Origin: a virus
Lineage: Duplodnaviria > Heunggongvirae > Uroviricota > Caudoviricetes
Virus record (IMG/VR): IMGVR_UViG_2925891887_000001
DNA: 64,000 nt
Direction: 5' to 3' (one strand)
The notes beneath the pieces are model-generated. The model searched no databases and was not told where the DNA came from. It saw only the letters and a list, made by a program, of their open reading frames with translations. Shown piece after piece: positions 8,171 to 62,313 of the stretch; position 1 is the stretch's first letter; each line of letters starts with the position of its first letter. Both the position numbers and the translations under genes were made by a program.

Positions 8171-8584
8171 ATGGCAAGAGGTATGTATGTCTTATGCGAA
8201 ATTGAAGGTGTGCTGGCAAATACCAGCCATCGTAAATCTGTATCTGACTCGGATGCAGGCCAATTCATTGCCGGTGATGAACTCATTTTCCCCACCAGCC
8301 GTATGTTGCGTGGTTTTGCTCGCTCAGGGGCTGAAGTGGTGCTTATCAGTAGCCGCTCTGAAACTCTTGAAGCGCCCACTAAACGATGGCTGAAAGATTT
8401 TGGTGTTGATTACGACTGGCTTCACCTCGTACCGAATAGCACTAGTTATGAGAAGCATATTAAGCGCACATTAGCGGAGCATAAAGGCGATCTGCTTATC
8501 GCTGCGCTGGTGCACGATCCTCGACTCCGTGCCGCTTTAGCTGACTCTCATCATAGACCGGTCATCTATGAGGTGAGCAAATGA
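8171..8584 (+). CDS. HAD-fold-like protein, possible nucleotidase (motif I degenerate)
   Basis: ATG 8171 directly follows the thyA stop. N-terminal VLCEIEGVLA resembles HAD motif I (DxDGVL) but has Glu in place of both Asp. Context is nucleotide metabolism. Confidence 0.3.
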   Translation: MARGMYVLCEIEGVLANTSHRKSVSDSDAGQFIAGDELIFPTSRMLRGFARSGAEVVLISSRSETLEAPTKRWLKDFGVDYDWLHLVPNSTSYEKHIKRTLAEHKGDLLIAALVHDPRLRAALADSHHRPVIYEVSK

Positions 8585-11900: not shown

Positions 11901-12494
11901 ATGATTGCAGCCGAAAAAATCAAACAGCGAAAGCGCGACAACTCTCTTCGTGACCTCTGGAGAACACCTGACTGGCTGTTTTCTGCCATTCAACGTTATC
12001 TTGGAGTGACATTTGATGTTGACGTTGCCTGCAACAAGGACAATGCAAAGCTGCCTAATTTCATAGGCGTTGAGCGTGATGCTTTGAAATCTGAATGGGG
12101 ACAGCCAGGTACAATTGCCTTCCTCAATCCACCCTACTCCAAAATCTACCCCTGGATTGATGCGGCTATACGTGAGCAGGCTCGCGGAGTTACAACAGTG
12201 ATGCTAATTCCTCAATCCCTCGATACAAAGTGGTATGAGCGTGCAACAGAGTGTGCGAATGAGACGATTATTCTGTCTGGTGGCCGCGTAGCGTTTGTCG
12301 AGCCTGACGTAAATCTGGGTCAGGTAGAAGTAAACATCAACCCAGGTGGCAGTATGCTCGTTGTTTTTCGAGGATTCTGTCAGGACGCTGGGCACTCTAT
12401 AAGCAAGATCCCTTTGGACGTCATGAAAAGTCTGGGAGGGTATGATCCTGCGAATGTGATCAGGAAAAAAAGACCATCAAAGAAGGCTGCTTAG
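11901..12494 (+). CDS. phage Dam-type DNA N6-adenine methyltransferase
   Basis: WRTPDWLF near the N-terminus and catalytic FLNPPYS, about 197 aa, as in phage N6A methyltransferase (Dam) family proteins. Confidence 0.8.
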   Translation: MIAAEKIKQRKRDNSLRDLWRTPDWLFSAIQRYLGVTFDVDVACNKDNAKLPNFIGVERDALKSEWGQPGTIAFLNPPYSKIYPWIDAAIREQARGVTTVMLIPQSLDTKWYERATECANETIILSGGRVAFVEPDVNLGQVEVNINPGGSMLVVFRGFCQDAGHSISKIPLDVMKSLGGYDPANVIRKKRPSKKAA

Positions 12495-12499
12495 TTTGT

Positions 12500-12596
12500 T
12501 CTGGTGTCTGTAATTAGCCTGCTTCTGTATATATAAATAACTACATATTAATTATTAATATACGGAAGAAGGCTGTTTTGTATCAGAGACTCCAGA
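12500..12596. repeat. large AT-rich imperfect palindrome, copy 1
   Basis: Outer arms TCTGGTGTCT/AGAGACTCCAGA. Inner arms AGCCTGCTTCTGTATATAT.../...ATATACGGAAGAAGGCT. The 23-nt core CCTGCTTCTGTATATATAAATAA is identical to 39079-39101. Confidence 0.85.
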
Positions 12597-12679
12597 CCTG
12601 AACATCACTACAGAATCCACTAGAACCCCTTCCCAGACGCTTTAAAATCGATTTTATGAACCACTTTAAGGAAACCAAC

Positions 12680-12910
12680 ATGTCATACCCGACTAATGTC
12701 GTTGCGCTCGTAGAGAGCGATTTTCTGGCCCAGGCTCGTGAAATGATGAAAGATCGTGAGCAGGCTTTCAACTTGTACGAATGGGCAATTAAGTGCTTGC
12801 ATCTTGGCGAGCATCGCGAACTTGTTGAACAGCTTTTAGGTGAGTTGATCAATGAGGTGTTTGCCTTGAATGTTCAACTACATGGTAGAGAAAATAATCA
12901 ACCACAATGA
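12680..12910 (+). CDS. hypothetical protein (76 aa)
   Basis: ATG 12680 is preceded by AAGGAAACC. The listed start at 12656 lacks an RBS. Confidence 0.45.
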   Translation: MSYPTNVVALVESDFLAQAREMMKDREQAFNLYEWAIKCLHLGEHRELVEQLLGELINEVFALNVQLHGRENNQPQ

Positions 12911-13405
12911 TAGATAAGTACAAACTATTCATAAAGTGAATTGTAAGTGCTAAGATCTGATAGTTTCCAGTCGTAGACTGGAGACTCGACCTGATGGGTG
13001 GGGGTAAGCGTCACTGGCGTCAGGTTTAAAAAAGCTCACTACCAGCGTAGAACTGGTGCCGTTTAGGTGTCGGGGAAGGGGGAACCAAAGTGAGCAGAGA
13101 CAAGGGTCACTTTATGATTGTCGAGTCTGGGGTGTTTCGAGAGGTTGAATCCAGTACTCCCCTTCATAAAGTGTGGGAAGATCTCGGTTCTGGGGTGCTG
13201 TCATCCATAACTTCCCAAGTCTAAGCTGGCAGTAGACTTAGACCATAACTTTTCAGGTTATGAAACGACCAGGTTGGTGAGAGATTTTTATACTCACCTC
13301 CCTGGGAGAGTATTACCTGAAAAGACAACCTCTCACTTCGTTCGAGGTGAACTTCACTCACTTCGTTCGTTCAGTTCAGGTTTATAAAAACCTGTTCTGG
13401 GAAGT
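12911..13405 (+). other. highly structured non-coding region (candidate ncRNA or origin)
   Basis: No credible ORF. At least nine hairpins or long-range helices readable by eye, including GACTCGAC 12983-12990 with GTCGAGTC 13120-13127. Two diverged tandem units are marked by TTCATAAAGTG (12928, 13163) and AAGATCT (12952, 13178). Confidence 0.4.
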
Positions 13406-13430
13406 AATTTGTTTATTTTAATAATTATTA

Positions 13431-13455
13431 ACACGCACGCGTGTGCGCACGCGCG
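13431..13455. other. 25-nt perfectly alternating purine-pyrimidine GC-rich tract after an AT-rich block
   Basis: ACACGCACGCGTGTGCGCACGCGCG read directly. It is preceded by GTAATTTGTTTATTTTAATAATTATTAA. Confidence 0.9.
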
Positions 13456-13492
13456 AAGAAAAATCGGCGCGGCGCTTGATTCAGGAGTTTAT

Positions 13493-14083
13493 ATGACGAC
13501 GAAGACACCAGCCCGATCGCAAGCAAAAACTCGCAAAAAAGCCAAAAACAAAAATTCCCCCCGCACCAATCCCACAACGCCTGTCGTAGAGTTCAATCCC
13601 CAGCTTAAAACCGTGAAAATCTTTAGTGATGGCTCTTGCCTTAAAAATCCGGGTGGCCCGGGCGGTTACGGTATCGTTCTCCAGTATCGTGGTGAGGAAC
13701 GCGAGTTCTCAGATGGTTTTCATAGCACCACCAATAACCGCATGGAGATGATGGGGGCACTTATCGGGCTGGAGCGTTTGAAATATCCATGCAACGTTAT
13801 TTTGCACTCTGATAGCCAGTATCTGAAAAACGGCATGACACAGTGGATGAAATGGTGGAAACGCAATGGATGGATGACTTCTGACAAAAAACCGGTAAAG
13901 AATGTTGATCTGTGGAAGCGTCTGGATGAGGCCGCAAGTCGACATAATGTTCGCTGGAAGTGGGTTAAAGGTCACGCCGGGCATCGTGAAAATGAAATAT
14001 GTGATCGACTCGCGAAGATCGCAGCTTTTTCAGCAGCAGATATGCCTCACAAGAAAGATATTGGTTTTGTTTATAATAAATAG
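13493..14083 (+). CDS. rnhA: ribonuclease HI with a basic N-terminal extension of about 40 aa
   Basis: From [20 protein letters not shown]...TTNNRMEMM...DSQY...KPVKNVDLW...[18 protein letters not shown] the protein is collinear with E. coli RNase HI as I recall it. ATG 13493 follows CAGGAG. Confidence 0.9.
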
Positions 14084-14231
14084 TAAGTAAGTGTTTACCT
14101 ATCATTTTAAATCATGTATCTTATCGGCGTCAGGATGACAATGTGTCGGTAAGACACAGTTCCAGGATGGAACGAGAAAGGCGGCTGGCAATCGCCAGCC
14201 GCAACTCTTTCTGACACTGGATGGAGTCCAC

Positions 14232-14726
14232 ATGGCACGTCAAACCTATTTCACTTCTGTAACTAAACGCCCTCGTTCTTTACGTCAAATTTTGGCCGAA
14301 TTATTTAGCGGTCGTGTTATGTCACGCCTTGAAGAACTAGAGACTACCGTTCGGTTGCTGAATGAACGTTTAGATAATCAAGCGTCAGTTGTTGCGAACG
14401 TGGGGGCGATTGTTGCCTCTGGCTCTTCACGCGAAGCGAAAAATGCACGGCCTTTAGTGAAGGAGAAAAACAACAAGGACAGTTCGAATGGAAAATTTTC
14501 AAAGAAAGAGGCTGAAACCAATGGCCTACGTTCTCATTATAGTTTCACTGGCGACGGTAGCCGTTCCAGCCGGTCAGAGCCTTTTGATGCCGGATTCATC
14601 CACCACCACACCTTCGTCGACGACAATTATCACCACTCCAGTGGAGCGTCCTGTCACTCTGGATGGGATGGCGGTGGATGCGATACCTCAAGTTCATCCA
14701 GTTACTCAGGATCATGCTGTGACTAA
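14232..14726 (+). CDS. hypothetical protein, C-terminus rich in Ser/Gly/Cys/His (164 aa)
   Basis: ORF with a GGAG RBS. The tail reads SGASCHSGWDGGGCDTSSSSSYSGSCCD. Confidence 0.4.
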   Translation: MARQTYFTSVTKRPRSLRQILAELFSGRVMSRLEELETTVRLLNERLDNQASVVANVGAIVASGSSREAKNARPLVKEKNNKDSSNGKFSKKEAETNGLRSHYSFTGDGSRSSRSEPFDAGFIHHHTFVDDNYHHSSGASCHSGWDGGGCDTSSSSSYSGSCCD

Positions 14727-39882: not shown

Positions 39883-41138
39883 TGGCAATCCCGTCCTCGC
39901 TCAGTCTTGTGCAACTGCATTCTGGACAGATGAAAGTCTTCCAGTCTCCGCATCGATTTAAAGTTGTTTGTGCTGGTCGACGCTGGGGAAAATCCCGGTT
40001 GTCGATCTCCACTATTATTCGTGCGGCGGCAAAGGAAAAAAAGCAAAGGGTCTGGTATGTCGCTCCTACTTACCAGATGGCTCGCCAGATTTTGTGGGAC
40101 GATCTACAGGAAGTTCTGCCTCGTAAGTGGGTTAGGAAAAAGAACGACACCACGATGACAATCGTGTTGAAGAACGGTTCGGAGATCGCCCTCAAAGGTG
40201 CTGATAAGCCTGACACTCTGCGCGGCGTAGCGTTGCATTTTGTAGTGCTTGATGAATTTCAGGATATGAAGGCTGACACCTGGTACAAGGTGTTACGACC
40301 TACTCTTTCATCGACACGCGGCGGTGCACTGATCATTGGTACGCCAAAAGGCTTCTCGGAATTTCACAAACTGTGGACTATAGGCCAGAACGTAGAGCTG
40401 CAAAGAAAGGGACAGTGGAAGAGCTGGCAGTTTGTAACTGCCGATTCTCCGTTTGTGCCTACGGCGGAAATTGAAGCTGCTAAGAACGATATGGACCCCA
40501 AATCGTTCGCTCAGGAGTACCTGGCCAGCTTTGAGAACATGTCCGGGCGCGTTTACTACCCGTTCGATCGTAACGTGCATGTAAAACCGCTTCAGTTCAA
40601 CCCTCGGTTGCCTATATGGGTAGGGCAGGACTTCAACATTGACCCGATGTCTTCAGTAATTTTGCAACCTCAGCCAAATGGTGAGCTATGGGCAATTGAT
40701 GAATTGGTGCTCTTTTCCTCTAACACGGCAGAAGTTTGTGATGAGCTTGAGAGACGCTTCTGGCGCTGGAAATCACAGGTAACGGTATTTCCAGATCCGG
40801 CAGGTGCTTATCGCCAACATGCTCGTGGGGAGTCTGACGTAGACATATTCAAAGAGAAGGGATTCTTACGTGTCGATTATTCGAAAAAGCACCCGCCAAT
40901 TGCGGATCGTGTTAATGCTGTTAACCGAATGCTGATGTCCGCATCTGGAGATATCCGGCTGTATATCGATCCGAAGTGCAAGCATTTGATTGATTCACTG
41001 GAAAAAGTCATCTACAAGCCTGGAACACGAGATATGGATAAGACAGGTGGCATTGAGCATAGTGCAGACGCATTGGGCTATCCAGTACATCGTAGGTATC
41101 CAGTCAAAAACCGTGTTATTCTTGGTGGTTCTCGATAG
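39882..41138 (+). CDS. terminase large subunit
   Basis: Walker A-like VCAGRRWGKS and Walker B FVVLDEFQD. C-terminal nuclease-type acidic motifs GQDFNIDP and FPDPAG. Confidence 0.85.
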   Translation: MAIPSSLSLVQLHSGQMKVFQSPHRFKVVCAGRRWGKSRLSISTIIRAAAKEKKQRVWYVAPTYQMARQILWDDLQEVLPRKWVRKKNDTTMTIVLKNGSEIALKGADKPDTLRGVALHFVVLDEFQDMKADTWYKVLRPTLSSTRGGALIIGTPKGFSEFHKLWTIGQNVELQRKGQWKSWQFVTADSPFVPTAEIEAAKNDMDPKSFAQEYLASFENMSGRVYYPFDRNVHVKPLQFNPRLPIWVGQDFNIDPMSSVILQPQPNGELWAIDELVLFSSNTAEVCDELERRFWRWKSQVTVFPDPAGAYRQHARGESDVDIFKEKGFLRVDYSKKHPPIADRVNAVNRMLMSASGDIRLYIDPKCKHLIDSLEKVIYKPGTRDMDKTGGIEHSADALGYPVHRRYPVKNRVILGGSR

Positions 41139-55423: not shown

Positions 55424-55448
55424 GATAAGTAAGTACTAATTTACTATC
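55424..55448. repeat. GTAAGTA-type palindrome (GATAAGTAAGTACTAATTTACTATC)
   Basis: Imperfect dyad between genes M and L. Confidence 0.6.
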
Positions 55449-60500: not shown

Positions 60501-62313
60501 GGCTGCAAGAGATGAAGCGGCGGCTCTTATTGCTAAGGAAAGCGAGGCTCGTGTTGAAGGCGATGCTGCAAACGCTAAACAACTGGAAGTGTTGCAGTCA
60601 ACGGTAGAGGAAAGCTCCGCTGCCGTTGAAGAAATGAAAAAGACGGTTGCAGAGGTCGATCGTGCCAGTGCAGAACTGACTACGAACATTGAAGCGTTAG
60701 CTAAAACAAATATTGACCTGGCTCTTCGTCAAGATGAAGACCAGCACAAGCAGATGGTCAATAACGCGAAGATCGCAACAACACAGAAAACCTTTGCTGA
60801 TGATATGTCCGCAATGGCCACGAAGGTTGAGGAAATTCGCGTAGAAATTGGCGAAGACATTAAGGCCAGTATTCTGGAAGAGTCCACCGCTCGTGCCGAT
60901 GGCGATGAAGCGTTGGCAAAGCGTGTCACTCAGCTGCAATCTAAGTTTGAAGGAGATATCAGCGCGGCGATTAGTACAGAGCAGGAGGCTCGTACATCTG
61001 CCGATGAAGCTCTGACGACACAAATCACTCAGCTTGAGTCGAAAGTAAGCAACGATATCGTCGCAGCTATTAAGGAAGAGCAAGAAGCCCGAGCAACGGA
61101 AGATTCGGCTCTGGCAAGCCAGATCACCCAACTTCAGGCAAAAGTTGATGATGATATTTCTGCTGCAATACGCAGTGAGCAGGAGGCCCGAGCAAGCGGG
61201 GACTCTGCGTTAGCCAAACAAATAAACCAGCTTCAGTCAAAGGTTGACGGTGATATATCCGCTGCCATCACTCAGGAGCAGGAGGCCAGAGCAAGTGCTG
61301 ACCAGGCGCTCTCACGAGAAATTAACAGCCTGCGAGCACAAACCGGAACTGATATTGCCGCAGCGGTTGCTGTAGAGACAAAAGCAAGGACTGATGCCGA
61401 TAGTGCATTGTCTACCCAGATTACGTCTCTTACAGCAAAAGCTAATGATCTCAAGGCGTCTCTTGCCAGAGAAACAACGGCTCGTGCAGATGGTGATACC
61501 GCTTTAACAAAAGAGGTTTCAAGTTTAAAAGCACAGACAGCGAAAGATATTAGTGCGGCCGTTGCAGTTGAAACGCAGGCTCGAACTGATGCTGACTCGG
61601 CGTTGTCGTCTCAGATCACCAAGCTGACCTCTCAATACAAAGAGGATATTAAAGCGGCTGTAGCAACCGAAACGAAAACGCGTACAGAGCAAGATGCTGC
61701 ATTGGCGACTCAAATCACAAACTTAGAGTCTCAAACGGCAGCCAACATTTCCGCGGCGGTCACAACTGAAACGAAAGCGAGAACGCAGGCAGATAATGCT
61801 CTGAGTGGGCGAATCGATACTCTGAAAGCAGAGGTGAATGGAAATACCGCGACAATTCAACAGCAGGCAACAGCTATTGCTGATACCAACAAAAAAGTGT
61901 CAACCGCGTGGACGTTGAAAATGGAGACTTCAACGAGCGGAGGGCAGAAGTATGTTGCCGGTATTGCGCTTGGTATTGACACCACTGGGCTATCTCAGTT
62001 TTTGGTTCAGGCGGACAGGTTTGGTTTGGTCAACTCTGTTAACGGGAAGATCACAACGCCATTTGTTATCGAAAACAGTATCGCCTATATGAATGGAGCG
62101 TATATCAAGGATGGCACAATCACCAATGCAAAAGTAGGCGATCTGCAATCTACCAATTTTGTTAGCGGTAGATCTGGATGGCGGTTCGGCAAAAATGGAA
62201 CGCTTGAGATCAACGGTAATAGCGGCGGCAATGGGCGATTGGTTATAAATGGTCAGCGGATTGACGTTTATGACGATAACAACGTCCTACGAGTAAGAAT
62301 TGGCCGTCTGTGA
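57586..62313 (+). CDS. tail tip/host specificity protein J (lambda gpJ-like) with an extended coiled-coil repeat region
   Basis: N-terminus is collinear with lambda gpJ (TP.EA.D...S...A.I.D...EG.I.G). FN3-like segment near 59800-60060. Ten tandem repeats of about 33 aa at 60877-61850. ATG 57586 follows AAGGA. Confidence 0.9.
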   Translation: MEQFKKKKLPLFIAGAGGKKSSKSSSRTPVEADDTVNSRAMAAILDLLGEGVIGGLVNGARSIFIDDLPIVNEDGSSNFSGITWDFRDGSQDQTPMSGFDFVETPKSVNIQLKKTHYVTVSIDNDEADRVRVIMKFPSLRSIDKKTGDTNGTTVEYKFQIANGDSTFVDVVAEGEKSVGIKLTAKKTGVYYRSYELKLPKPGRAYKVRVVRITDDNSSQYLYNDTWVDSIGEIVDTPMNYPNSVLVGLKVNSEQFGSTMPSRSYLVRGLKIRVPSNYNESSNTYAGVWDGTFKLLSSSNPAWILFDLLTNARYGLGQYVSESMIDLGQLYQIGRYCDEEVDDGFGGKEKRFAINTQITSRQDAYRLIQDIAGAFRGMVFWAGGMVNIMQDSPSDPVMMFTNSNVKDGLFTYKGSARKDRPSVALVTYNNKEDGYKQNIEYVEDQDAMRRYGERKTEVVAFGCTSRGQAHRVGLWLLYTARMESDVITFTAGLDASFLMPGETVLIQNKYRAGKRNSGRIVAFTKNSVTLDAPVSLAKGGCFIRILNQEGKIVERDVLETGENITKVTFSKALSSAETPVLNGVWTITEPDLEPMRVRIVNIAQGETPGSFDITAVENNPSKYEAIDNGATLIPQNTTVLDPTYSKPSNLQITEGTYLSSPGNLSVKLTATWEGKSPEYWISWRRSDENNVSNWQSARVTEEQYEIVNVAENGRYDFQLYAVSFNGKKTEIISTVYQVLGTMTPPDAPTSLTAVGDYRNVILNWVNPDSVDLDHINVYASQTNNLDTAKLIAESASTTFTHAGLGDSETWYYWVRASNKRGMLSPPNSNLGTEATTRDVLSFLTGKITSSELGQALLEDINSKASQEAVDELNEHINQSVESLEGAVNDVKEDIAELDKQFSDNLADFEIKFNERSDALENAQTELKGEVSATIDKVNEAFEKIDATDAAIVEIENTVSEHDKALANTVEAIKAARDEAAALIAKESEARVEGDAANAKQLEVLQSTVEESSAAVEEMKKTVAEVDRASAELTTNIEALAKTNIDLALRQDEDQHKQMVNNAKIATTQKTFADDMSAMATKVEEIRVEIGEDIKASILEESTARADGDEALAKRVTQLQSKFEGDISAAISTEQEARTSADEALTTQITQLESKVSNDIVAAIKEEQEARATEDSALASQITQLQAKVDDDISAAIRSEQEARASGDSALAKQINQLQSKVDGDISAAITQEQEARASADQALSREINSLRAQTGTDIAAAVAVETKARTDADSALSTQITSLTAKANDLKASLARETTARADGDTALTKEVSSLKAQTAKDISAAVAVETQARTDADSALSSQITKLTSQYKEDIKAAVATETKTRTEQDAALATQITNLESQTAANISAAVTTETKARTQADNALSGRIDTLKAEVNGNTATIQQQATAIADTNKKVSTAWTLKMETSTSGGQKYVAGIALGIDTTGLSQFLVQADRFGLVNSVNGKITTPFVIENSIAYMNGAYIKDGTITNAKVGDLQSTNFVSGRSGWRFGKNGTLEINGNSGGNGRLVINGQRIDVYDDNNVLRVRIGRL

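Follow-up and report, generated by a model that had tools for sequence, protein, structure and literature searches.

The 64,000-nt stretch of viral DNA analysed here (IMG/VR record IMGVR_UViG_2925891887_000001; the window) carries, directly upstream of the RNase HI gene rnhA, a conserved non-coding gene for a structured RNA on the + strand. The gene has its own conserved promoter-like element and spans positions 12962 to about 13408 (approximately 450 nt), and in lysogens its RNA is abundant relative to the neighbouring genes. An original prediction, made from the DNA letters, had described the region 12911–13492 as densely structured and had proposed two alternatives for it, namely a large structured non-coding RNA (ncRNA), or an R-loop or RNA II-like origin of replication served by the adjacent rnhA. 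The first alternative is now strongly supported by conservation, covariation, the conserved promoter and published RNA sequencing (RNA-seq) data.

Sequence identity was determined by segment, in window coordinates, against five diverged relatives (Table 1). By this measure, the constrained unit is a core of 424 nt ending at UUCUGGGAAGUAA, with identity falling from approximately 0.9 to approximately 0.77 past position 13400. The dense structure noted by the original prediction was confirmed by folding: the + strand has a minimum free energy of −207.9 kcal/mol (z = −6.8), which none of 100 shuffled sequences equalled, and the − strand one of −172.7 kcal/mol (z = −5.5). Covariation, a check proposed with the original prediction, was assessed in an alignment (A1) of 20 non-redundant diverged sequences, the Cronobacter lineage included. 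RNAalifold predicted 101 pairs, 32 of them compensatory; after one spurious long-range pair was dropped, the fold comprised 99 pairs in 17 helices, which are 99.3% paired across the 20 sequences. Changes on both sides were found in 31 of the 99 pairs (89 cells), compared to two to four pairs when the 3′ partners were slid by one to three columns, and none of 500 shuffles matched this number. Most of these double changes stem from one deep split, between the main and the Cronobacter lineage, and represent few independent events. The helix cells contain 217 G·U combinations against 4 A·C combinations; therefore, the + strand is the folded RNA strand. Invariant bases occupy 105 of the 228 unpaired core columns, which suggests tertiary or protein contacts.

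All 20 sequences, those of the Cronobacter lineage among them, share the pattern GTGnTAnnAT (12947–12956) without change, in surroundings that are 45–65% identical, and in each of them a −35 element lies 17 nt upstream of the −10 element. We infer that positions 12928–12956 constitute an extended −10 sigma-70 promoter. A hairpin of 6–11 bp follows the −10 element at a constant distance of six nt in 20 of 20 sequences, with at least eight unrelated stem sequences among the relatives; in the window, its stem is the CCAGTC/GACTGG helix pointed out earlier.

Expression of the element in lysogens was taken from an RNA-seq re-analysis of LF82 (PMC9928086, S1 Table), the profiles of which are strand-resolved. 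The phage-plasmid of these lysogens, Cyrano (pLF82), is 97–98% identical to the window over the element region, and a segment inside its element is annotated as the gene CYRAN_81. Expressed as log2(fpkm+5), where fpkm denotes fragments per kilobase per million, the values for CYRAN_81 were 6.8/6.9 in LB, 9.3/9.0 in B1 and 6.9/6.9 in B6, and 9.0/8.2 in MB1 and 10.35/10.3 in MB6 (macrophages, 6 h after infection), compared to 3.1–5.8 for the upstream gene, which encodes a 76-aa protein, and 2.6–5.0 for rnhA (PMC9928086). These table values place the segment 12–40 times above both neighbours; the authors listed it as a ‘moron’, 12-fold over the local background (PMC9928086). In both level and pattern over the five conditions, CYRAN_81 resembles the putative repressor CYRAN_45 and the integrase. 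The values for rnhA stay with the background level of the genes around it and do not mirror the 10-fold swings of the RNA.

The absence of a credible open reading frame (ORF) from 12911–13492, as originally claimed, was upheld. No ORF of at least 12 aa is kept in frame across all 20 sequences on either strand. The only sizeable ORF (13090–13224, 44 aa) is the one annotated as CYRAN_81; it is frameshifted or stopped in four lineages (L113, L128, L145 and L146), and in the Cronobacter lineage it lacks a start codon, so that 7 of the 20 sequences are affected. On this evidence the element is best regarded as non-coding and CYRAN_81 as a spurious ORF. A small protein or type I toxin was ruled out as a candidate, since no ORF is conserved. 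A search of Rfam 15, likewise proposed earlier, gave no family match at the gathering score in the 64 kb, nor in the homologous and syntenic loci; the families included GOLLD, ROOL, OLE, raiA, HEARO, 6S, transfer-messenger RNA (tmRNA), RNase P, CsrB, RNAI, group I and II introns, and riboswitches. With E-values up to 10, nothing credible was found in 12400–14300, the best matches being unrelated microRNA, hepatitis C virus and small nucleolar RNA models far under their thresholds. A known RNA family was thus ruled out, as were degenerate tRNA genes or a tmRNA, because ARAGORN detected no tRNA or tmRNA genes in the window. We found no description of the element's RNA in the literature.

Architecture of the RNA and its flanks

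Table 1. Features of the RNA gene and its surroundings in window coordinates. Identities are to five diverged relatives.
Feature	Position	Strand	Remarks
Promoter and variable hairpin segment	12911–12984		45–65% identity
−35 element	12928–12933	+	TTCATA (TTTAAA or TTTACC in relatives); T18 and T19 invariant, A17 and A21 at least 90% in A1
Extended −10 element	12948–12956	+	TGcTAAGAT
5′-terminal hairpin	12962–12986	+	Starts at predicted transcription start A12962
Core	12985–13408	+	424 nt; 88–96% identity
Helix H2	12989–13025	+	Long hairpin with invariant G-rich internal loops (GAUGGGUGGnGG / CUGGCrUC); 13 pairs, 3 compensatory
Helices H3–H5	13035–13094	+	GCUCACU/AGUGAGC around G-rich loop (GGGGAAGGGGGAACC); H3 compensatory in 3 of 6 pairs
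Multi-helix domain	13103–13318	+	Long-range 3-bp closure H6 (13103–13105 with 13316–13318); eight helices H7–H14 inside
Hairpin H15	13329–13347	+	CCUC[UCAC-UNC-GUUC]GAGG; stem and loop invariant save central N (all four bases among lineages)
Hairpin H16	13348–13378	+	UGAACU/AGUUCA around second (UCAC)2-UUC-(GUUC)2 motif; 3 of 6 stem pairs compensatory
A/U-rich hairpin	13377–13394	+	CAGGUUU/AAACCUG, main lineage only; covaries in A lineage (CAGGGG/CCCCUG, CAGGGA/UCCUUG); broken in L113, absent in JZ38 type
Conserved tail UUCUGGGAAGUAA	13395–13407	+	Last conserved bases; TCTGGG invariant in A1; probable 3′-end region
AT-rich block	13405–13430		In every lineage; sequence and length vary, indels up to 14 nt; outside core
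Segment from core to rnhA	13409–13492		66–79% identity
Alternating purine-pyrimidine tract (CA/CG)n	13431–13455		Perfect, 25 nt; sole run of at least 13 nt in 64 kb
GC-rich stem-loop, A-rich loop	13445–13475	+	Abuts rnhA Shine-Dalgarno; predicted in window and L128; fails terminator scan criteria
rnhA, RNase HI	13493–14083	+	Pfam RNase_H E = 1e-44; neighbour, outside RNA
Coding sequences of Dam-like methylase, 76-aa protein and rnhA	Flanks		73–77% identity
Coding sequence after rnhA			62–65% identity

Six helices that the original prediction had read by eye recur in the covariation-supported consensus: CCTGA/TCAGG (in H2), GCTCACT/AGTGAGC (H3), AAGTCTA/TAGACTT (H12), CATAAC/GTTATG (H13), GGTGAG/CTCACC (H14) and, as the 5′ hairpin, CCAGTC/GACTGG. 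For CAGGTTT/AAACCTG, covariation was found in the main lineage, but the Cronobacter lineage lacks the helix, and ACCAG/CTGGT proved peculiar to the window sequence and is not kept in relatives. The long-range pairing of GACTCGAC with GTCGAGTC (12985–12990 with 13120–13125) is conserved and wobble-tolerant, but lacks clean compensatory support; since H6 and H7 would be crossed, only a pseudoknot could accommodate it, and its existence is uncertain. Two further candidate pairings, 13011–13018 with 13273–13280 and 13090–13094 with 13293–13297, show ‘double changes’ between the two clades, about as many as we estimated by chance for two deep clades only. Pairs with double changes number 2 of 3 in H6, 3 of 9 in H7, 3 of 5 in H8, 3 of 7 in H10, 5 of 10 in H12 and 2 of 10 in H14. 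The region of H3–H5 has a local GC skew of +0.35 to +0.5, and a covariance model of the H2 (5′) domain gave matches only in the A and A′ lineages.

The RNA shows four YCUGGGR motifs and twin (UCAC)n-UNC-(GUUC)n loops. The latter are the loops of H15 and H16 and correspond to a 13-nt direct repeat at 13332 and 13357, the first CTCACTTCGTTCG copy of the original prediction falling in H15. We interpret this repeat as a pair of loops in the folded RNA and not as iterons, given the covarying stems around it and the variable central N. An iteron reading of the two CTCACTTCGTTCG copies was ruled out on the same covariation and because the 64 kb hold no further copies beyond chance. The hairpin CAACCTC[TCAC-TAC-GTTC]GAGGTTG, followed by GTGCGCGCAC, also occurs in an unrelated high-GC viral contig (L174, 6300–6345; also in L165 and L201), inside a 442-aa ORF without a Pfam match. 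It was found with a 22-nt pattern and not used as evidence, and it may reflect chance (20 specified bases) or a common recognition hairpin.

The two diverged tandem units of about 235 nt described earlier could not be sustained. Tandem Repeats Finder reported no tandem repeat, the only words common to both units are of 11 and 12 nt, and the ‘first unit’ (12911–12984) is the poorly conserved segment of the promoter and the variable hairpin, in which the first TTCATAAAGTG copy is present in the E. coli lineage only. A tandem duplication was therefore ruled out. The exact 11-nt repeat TTCATAAAGTG (12928–12938 and 13163–13173) is itself confined to the E. coli lineage; its upstream copy is the −35 region and is complementary to 13107–13117, and the repeat may reflect a small internal copy event.

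Past the core, the AT-rich block and the perfectly alternating tract that had been pointed out are both present, and both lie outside the conserved unit. The alternating tract is 14–29 nt long among 66 unique relatives and is absent in the JZ38 type, apart from CGCGCGAG; the two tracts evolve at approximately the rate of the coding flanks. A terminator scan of this lineage detected no canonical intrinsic terminator after the core. Candidates for the 3′ end are a small conserved hairpin (13391–13401) followed by a U-rich stretch, and the GC-rich stem-loop at 13445–13475, which, as modelled, is a possible attenuator.

Distribution and gene context

Over 1.5 kb around the element, the window shares 99.5% identity with Escherichia phage CMS-2020a and 98% with PhiR41_1 and Cyrano; for Salmonella phage SSU5 and Klebsiella phage-plasmids, the values are 78–82%. 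Because of these identities, we assign the window to the SSU5/pHCM2-type phage-plasmids. A blastn search located the element in 686 of the 72,556 PLSDB plasmids (Klebsiella, Escherichia, Enterobacter, Salmonella, Citrobacter and Cronobacter); 12 phage records also matched, as did 231 of 5426 complete E. coli genomes. The carriers of the element are nearly always plasmids of approximately 110 kb. A distant version (approximately 50% identity overall) is present in Cronobacter sp. JZ38 and four viral contigs. The annotation under the match is empty in nearly all listed records, apart from ‘rnhA’ at the edges of three matches and, in Cyrano, the ORF CYRAN_81. A scan of genome contigs with the RNase HI protein returned chromosomal rnhA loci only and is uninformative on the element.

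The element lies in a long + strand run of DNA metabolism genes, in the order nrdAB, thyA, folA, exonuclease, Dam-like methylase, the 76-aa protein of unknown function, the element and rnhA. The rnhA gene adjoins the element in more than 95% of the carriers. Its product carries a poorly conserved, Lys-rich N-terminal extension of approximately 38 aa (13493–13610; 56–67% nucleotide identity), and the SSU5 record (L002, 8742–9506) annotates the RNase H start approximately 150 nt further upstream, inside the RNA. This extended start seems unlikely because the tract lengths differ by non-multiples of three.

The slot differs among relatives. In the Cronobacter JZ38 lineage (L003), the RNA is kept without rnhA downstream and is directly followed by a GGA-rich leader, the counterpart of which follows rnhA in the window (14084–14231). 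In 30 records of pCAV-type Klebsiella phage-plasmids, a different non-coding region of approximately 430 nt lies between the 76-aa gene and rnhA. Its candidate structured RNA (L241, 2726–3215; L242, 2726–3220; L244–L246) has 143 predicted pairs, 15 of them compensatory among five sequences, together with a variable 5′ hairpin of its own. A canonical terminator approximately 110 nt before rnhA marks its end, and it has no Rfam match. Homology between the two RNAs was rejected: the local alignment score equalled the shuffle mean, the 5′-domain covariance model gave no match, and nhmmer found none (with odd filter statistics). Shortly before the start of rnhA, the pCAV type carries a short tandem repeat, (CAGCGAAA)3 (L241, 3256–3290), which parallels the length-variable (CA/CG)n tract of the window. 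In a Moellerella relative, both the RNA and rnhA are missing from this slot.

Some further features of these genomes deserve mention. The module at 14084–14231 comprises TAAGTAAGTGTTTACCTATCATT, two hairpins with AGGAU loops (a weak CsrB-like match, E = 0.05), a GC-rich terminator-like hairpin (14181–14202) and a GGA over the Shine-Dalgarno sequence of the next gene; its homologue directly after the ncRNA in the JZ38 lineage is at L003 3395–3530. This module is possibly a leader under CsrA control, or else a small RNA. The motif TAAGTA(AGT)...TTTAC(C)TATCATT occurs at several intergenic sites, including window positions 55426 (+), 18152 (−) and 2324 (+), with four matches on each strand, some overlapping at the same site, compared to 0.7 expected per strand. 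At 55426 it is followed by a hairpin with an AGGAU loop, as in the 14084–14231 module, and it may be a promoter or operator module that these sites of the phage-plasmid share. A palindrome over the stop codon of the 76-aa gene abuts the −35 element in most lineages (L002, about 8307–8320; window, 12914–12927). It reads GGTAAGTACTTACC in SSU5-like genomes, AATAGCT..AGCTATT in the JZ38 type and TAAGTAA..TTACTTA in the pCAV type, is half kept in the E. coli lineage, and may be an operator. Between the genes for the Dam-like methylase and the 76-aa protein, a long AT-rich inverted repeat (GCCTGCTTCTGTATAT...ATATACGGAAGAAGGC; 12511–12579) gave a chance match to mir-392.

Cyrano (OV696614) encodes a plasmid-type RepA together with T4-like UvsW and UvsY, a gp32-like single-stranded DNA-binding protein and RecA/UvsX-like proteins (52.2–57.4 kb and 103.5–105 kb; L247, L248). 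It also encodes a DnaE polymerase, primase, helicase, ligase, FEN-type exonuclease and RNase HI. This gene set hints at a T4-style recombination-dependent or R-loop-dependent lytic replication. CYRAN_43 (40268–40822, outside the window), annotated as a ‘hypothetical protein’ and located beside the genes for the integrase and the repressor, exceeds the background 723-fold in LF82 lysogens; it may be a further RNA with a wrong annotation, or else a strongly expressed moron.

Function of the RNA and alternative explanations

On balance, we consider it probable that the element encodes a stand-alone, trans-acting and presumably protein-binding ncRNA of a new family that is expressed in lysogeny. 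Transcription of the + strand would start at about A12962 from the promoter at 12928–12956, giving an RNA with the 5′ hairpin followed by the 424-nt core of at least 17 helices and ending near 13408–13425 or at the GC hairpin near 13475. The folded RNA would act in trans by binding one or more proteins as a scaffold or decoy, not via long antisense pairing. That it binds protein is suggested because almost half of the unpaired positions are invariant; the twin (UCAC)n-UNC-(GUUC)n loops and the four YCUGGGR motifs are candidate binding sites. No complementarity to the RNA of at least 13 nt was found in the window or in the rest of a complete 113-kb relative, and 12-mers occur at chance frequency. 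The RNA may serve the plasmid-prophage state through maintenance, immunity or host manipulation, and probably neither rnhA expression nor RepA-dependent replication. Several points besides the single deep split in the alignment weigh against this interpretation. The RNA-seq value covers 135 nt of the element only, and the gene counts may not be strand-specific. With no canonical terminator detected after the core, the 3′ end and the independence from downstream transcription are provisional. The trans-acting, protein-binding mechanism is conjectural, and short seed pairing of 7–12 nt to mRNAs would also be compatible with the complementarity search. A bolder and decidedly tentative version is that the RNA founds a new class of large (approximately 450 nt), tertiary-structured RNAs of SSU5-type phage-plasmids in lysogeny. 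It would act as a ribonucleoprotein core, ribozyme or self-assembling RNA with a complexity like that of ROOL, GOLLD and OLE, and its slot would be an exchangeable ‘RNA cassette’ of the plasmid-prophage lifestyle.

The origin proposed in the original prediction now appears unlikely, though the RNA may conceivably take part in R-loop-type initiation of lytic replication. Under this explanation, the transcript would form a persistent hybrid at the downstream AT-rich block, and RNase HI would process the hybrid to prime DNA synthesis. Precedents are ColE1 RNA II, T4 oriF and oriG, and the RNA-based origins of extrachromosomal mycobacteriophage prophages. Much of the locus fits: a structured untranslated RNA of approximately 450 nt is produced from a sigma-70 promoter, its 5′ third is G-rich with G tracts and a GC skew of up to +0.5, rnhA is its usual neighbour, and the phage-plasmid encodes T4-like UvsW, UvsY, gp32 and RecA proteins. 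In the A and A′ lineages, moreover, the AT-rich block is kept in composition, not in sequence, and is followed by the GC-rich tract CGCGCGAG. Regions of 400–500 bp encoding ncRNA that is expressed in lysogens are also needed for the maintenance of cluster A mycobacteriophages as plasmid-prophages (PMC7157519). However, a RepA initiator gene with flanking intergenic regions is located at 60633–61688 in Cyrano, outside the window and 17 kb from the element. RepA has also been reported for pECOH89 and pLF82, with 48% identity between the two (PMC3999498), yet the element, compared for pLF82, is 97% identical between that genome and the window. The JZ38 lineage maintains the RNA without rnhA downstream, the Moellerella relative lacks both in this slot, and conservation stops at 13408, short of both the AT-rich and the alternating tract. 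What might pass for ‘iterons’ are loops of RNA hairpins with covarying stems. A conserved antisense promoter for control of a primer was not found, the only − strand promoter-like site (12969 to 12940) pointing away from the RNA and lying in the non-conserved segment. The GC skew does not change at 13.4 kb, which is weak evidence, as nearly all genes have one orientation.

The RNA might instead be a long cis-acting leader or attenuator, with transcription mostly stopping before rnhA and regulated read-through controlling rnhA and the downstream genes. We regard this as improbable too, although the RNA is on the same strand directly upstream of rnhA, no canonical terminator follows the core, a GC-rich hairpin abuts the rnhA ribosome-binding site, simple-sequence tracts separate the RNA and rnhA in both RNA types, and expression falls 12–40-fold over the junction. 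In size and complexity the core far exceeds known leaders, and it matches no Rfam cis-regulatory family. In the JZ38 type it is kept before a different downstream region, the pCAV-type RNA in the same slot has a strong terminator before rnhA, and rnhA expression is uncoupled from the swings of the RNA. Processing of the RNA into one or several small regulatory RNAs, like the immunity RNAs P1 c4 or P4 CI, which would pair over short stretches with phage-plasmid or host transcripts, seems more doubtful still. It would agree with lysogen expression parallel to that of the putative repressor, with the two identical hairpin-loop motifs, which could be paired seed sequences, and with the anti-repressor genes (Ant, Rha) downstream in some lineages. 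Yet complementarity in the whole phage-plasmid is no better than chance 12-mers, and the constraint on all 424 nt, including the long-range closing helix, argues for one folded unit. Least probable, and by a wide measure improbable, is an element acting as DNA, such as a single-strand initiation or primosome assembly site, a packaging site or a protein-bound iteron array, with structure incidental to transcription. Single-stranded DNA could, in principle, also adopt hairpins, the two 13-nt direct repeats are spaced by 25 bp, and the alternating tract is prone to form Z-DNA; but the retention of strand-specific G·U cells (217), the covariation over 17 helices including long-range ones, and a conserved promoter at the right distance with abundant transcription all argue for an RNA.

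The trans-acting, probably protein-binding RNA that we favour would be of wider interest. Phage-plasmids of the SSU5/pHCM2 type occur widely in clinical E. coli, Klebsiella, Enterobacter and Salmonella, pHCM2 of S. Typhi among them, and were found in 4% of the complete E. coli genomes here; they can carry resistance genes. The RNA is the most conserved non-coding stretch examined in the module, and genome annotations leave it blank or show a spurious 44-aa ORF. To our knowledge, large bacterial RNAs with such conserved structure are rare, and each of those solved so far has shown unusual biochemistry. Two likely mis-annotations, the ‘moron protein’ CYRAN_81 and the over-extended RNase H start of SSU5, can be corrected. 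Since the hosts are genetically tractable and both lysogens (LF82/Cyrano, PhiR41_1 in K-12) and RNA-seq data exist, the function of the RNA is directly testable, with plasmid-prophage maintenance, immunity, control of replication and host manipulation as candidates.

Comparison with known systems

Among RNA-primed systems, ColE1/pMB1 RNA II shares with the element a structured, untranslated transcript of approximately 0.5 kb, as expected of a preprimer, a sigma-70 promoter, G-rich segments and a link to RNase H, which here consists of gene adjacency. The element differs in that no promoter for an RNA I countertranscript was found, its replicon encodes a RepA of its own at a distance of 17 kb, the putative unwinding region lies beyond the end of conservation, one lineage does without rnhA, and no ColE1-type similarity is present. 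In T4 oriF and oriG, the unwinding element lies within approximately 100 bp of the promoter, whereas the AT-rich block lies approximately 450 nt downstream here. The prophage origins of cluster A mycobacteriophages likewise belong to phage-plasmids with a ncRNA of 400–500 nt in lysogeny (PMC7157519), but these lack repA and have the RNA beside parABS (PMC7157519). Their hosts are Actinobacteria, so no homology to the element would be expected. Cyrano has a RepA, and its par genes lie at a distance of tens of kb from the element (ParA at 29.3 kb, ParB at 105 kb, the element at 78.5 kb).

The phage immunity RNAs P1 c4 and P4 CI and the small RNAs and sponges of enterohaemorrhagic E. coli prophages are, like the element's RNA, expressed in the lysogeny of prophages or plasmid-prophages and in the same direction as downstream lytic genes or morons. 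They are 60–100 nt long with defined short complementarities, whereas the RNA described here is approximately 450 nt long, uniformly constrained and without a complementary target in our searches. Type I toxin mRNAs of the hok family resemble it in size (approximately 400 nt), extensive folding, long-range pairing and abundance in lysogens, but differ in that the element has no conserved small ORF on either strand and no antisense promoter was found. In place of the tandem repeats of type III (toxI-like) toxin-antitoxin systems, the element has only two 13-nt repeats, which are hairpin loops. A CsrB-type sponge is not indicated, as there is no CsrB match inside the element and its UGGGAAG (13174–13180) lies in the covarying stem H10. 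Nor does the element behave as a cis-leader of rnhA, given the JZ38 RNA without rnhA and the uncoupled rnhA levels over five conditions.

Compared to GOLLD and ROOL, large structured ncRNAs of phages and prophages, and to OLE and raiA/ModT, the element shows no sequence or structure match (Rfam 15), resides in phage-plasmids of Enterobacteriaceae and is not located beside tRNAs. Like these RNAs, it is borne by a mobile element, non-coding and abundant, with no obvious antisense target, and its RNA shares with them a length of several hundred nucleotides, many covarying helices, a long-range closure and many invariant unpaired nucleotides.

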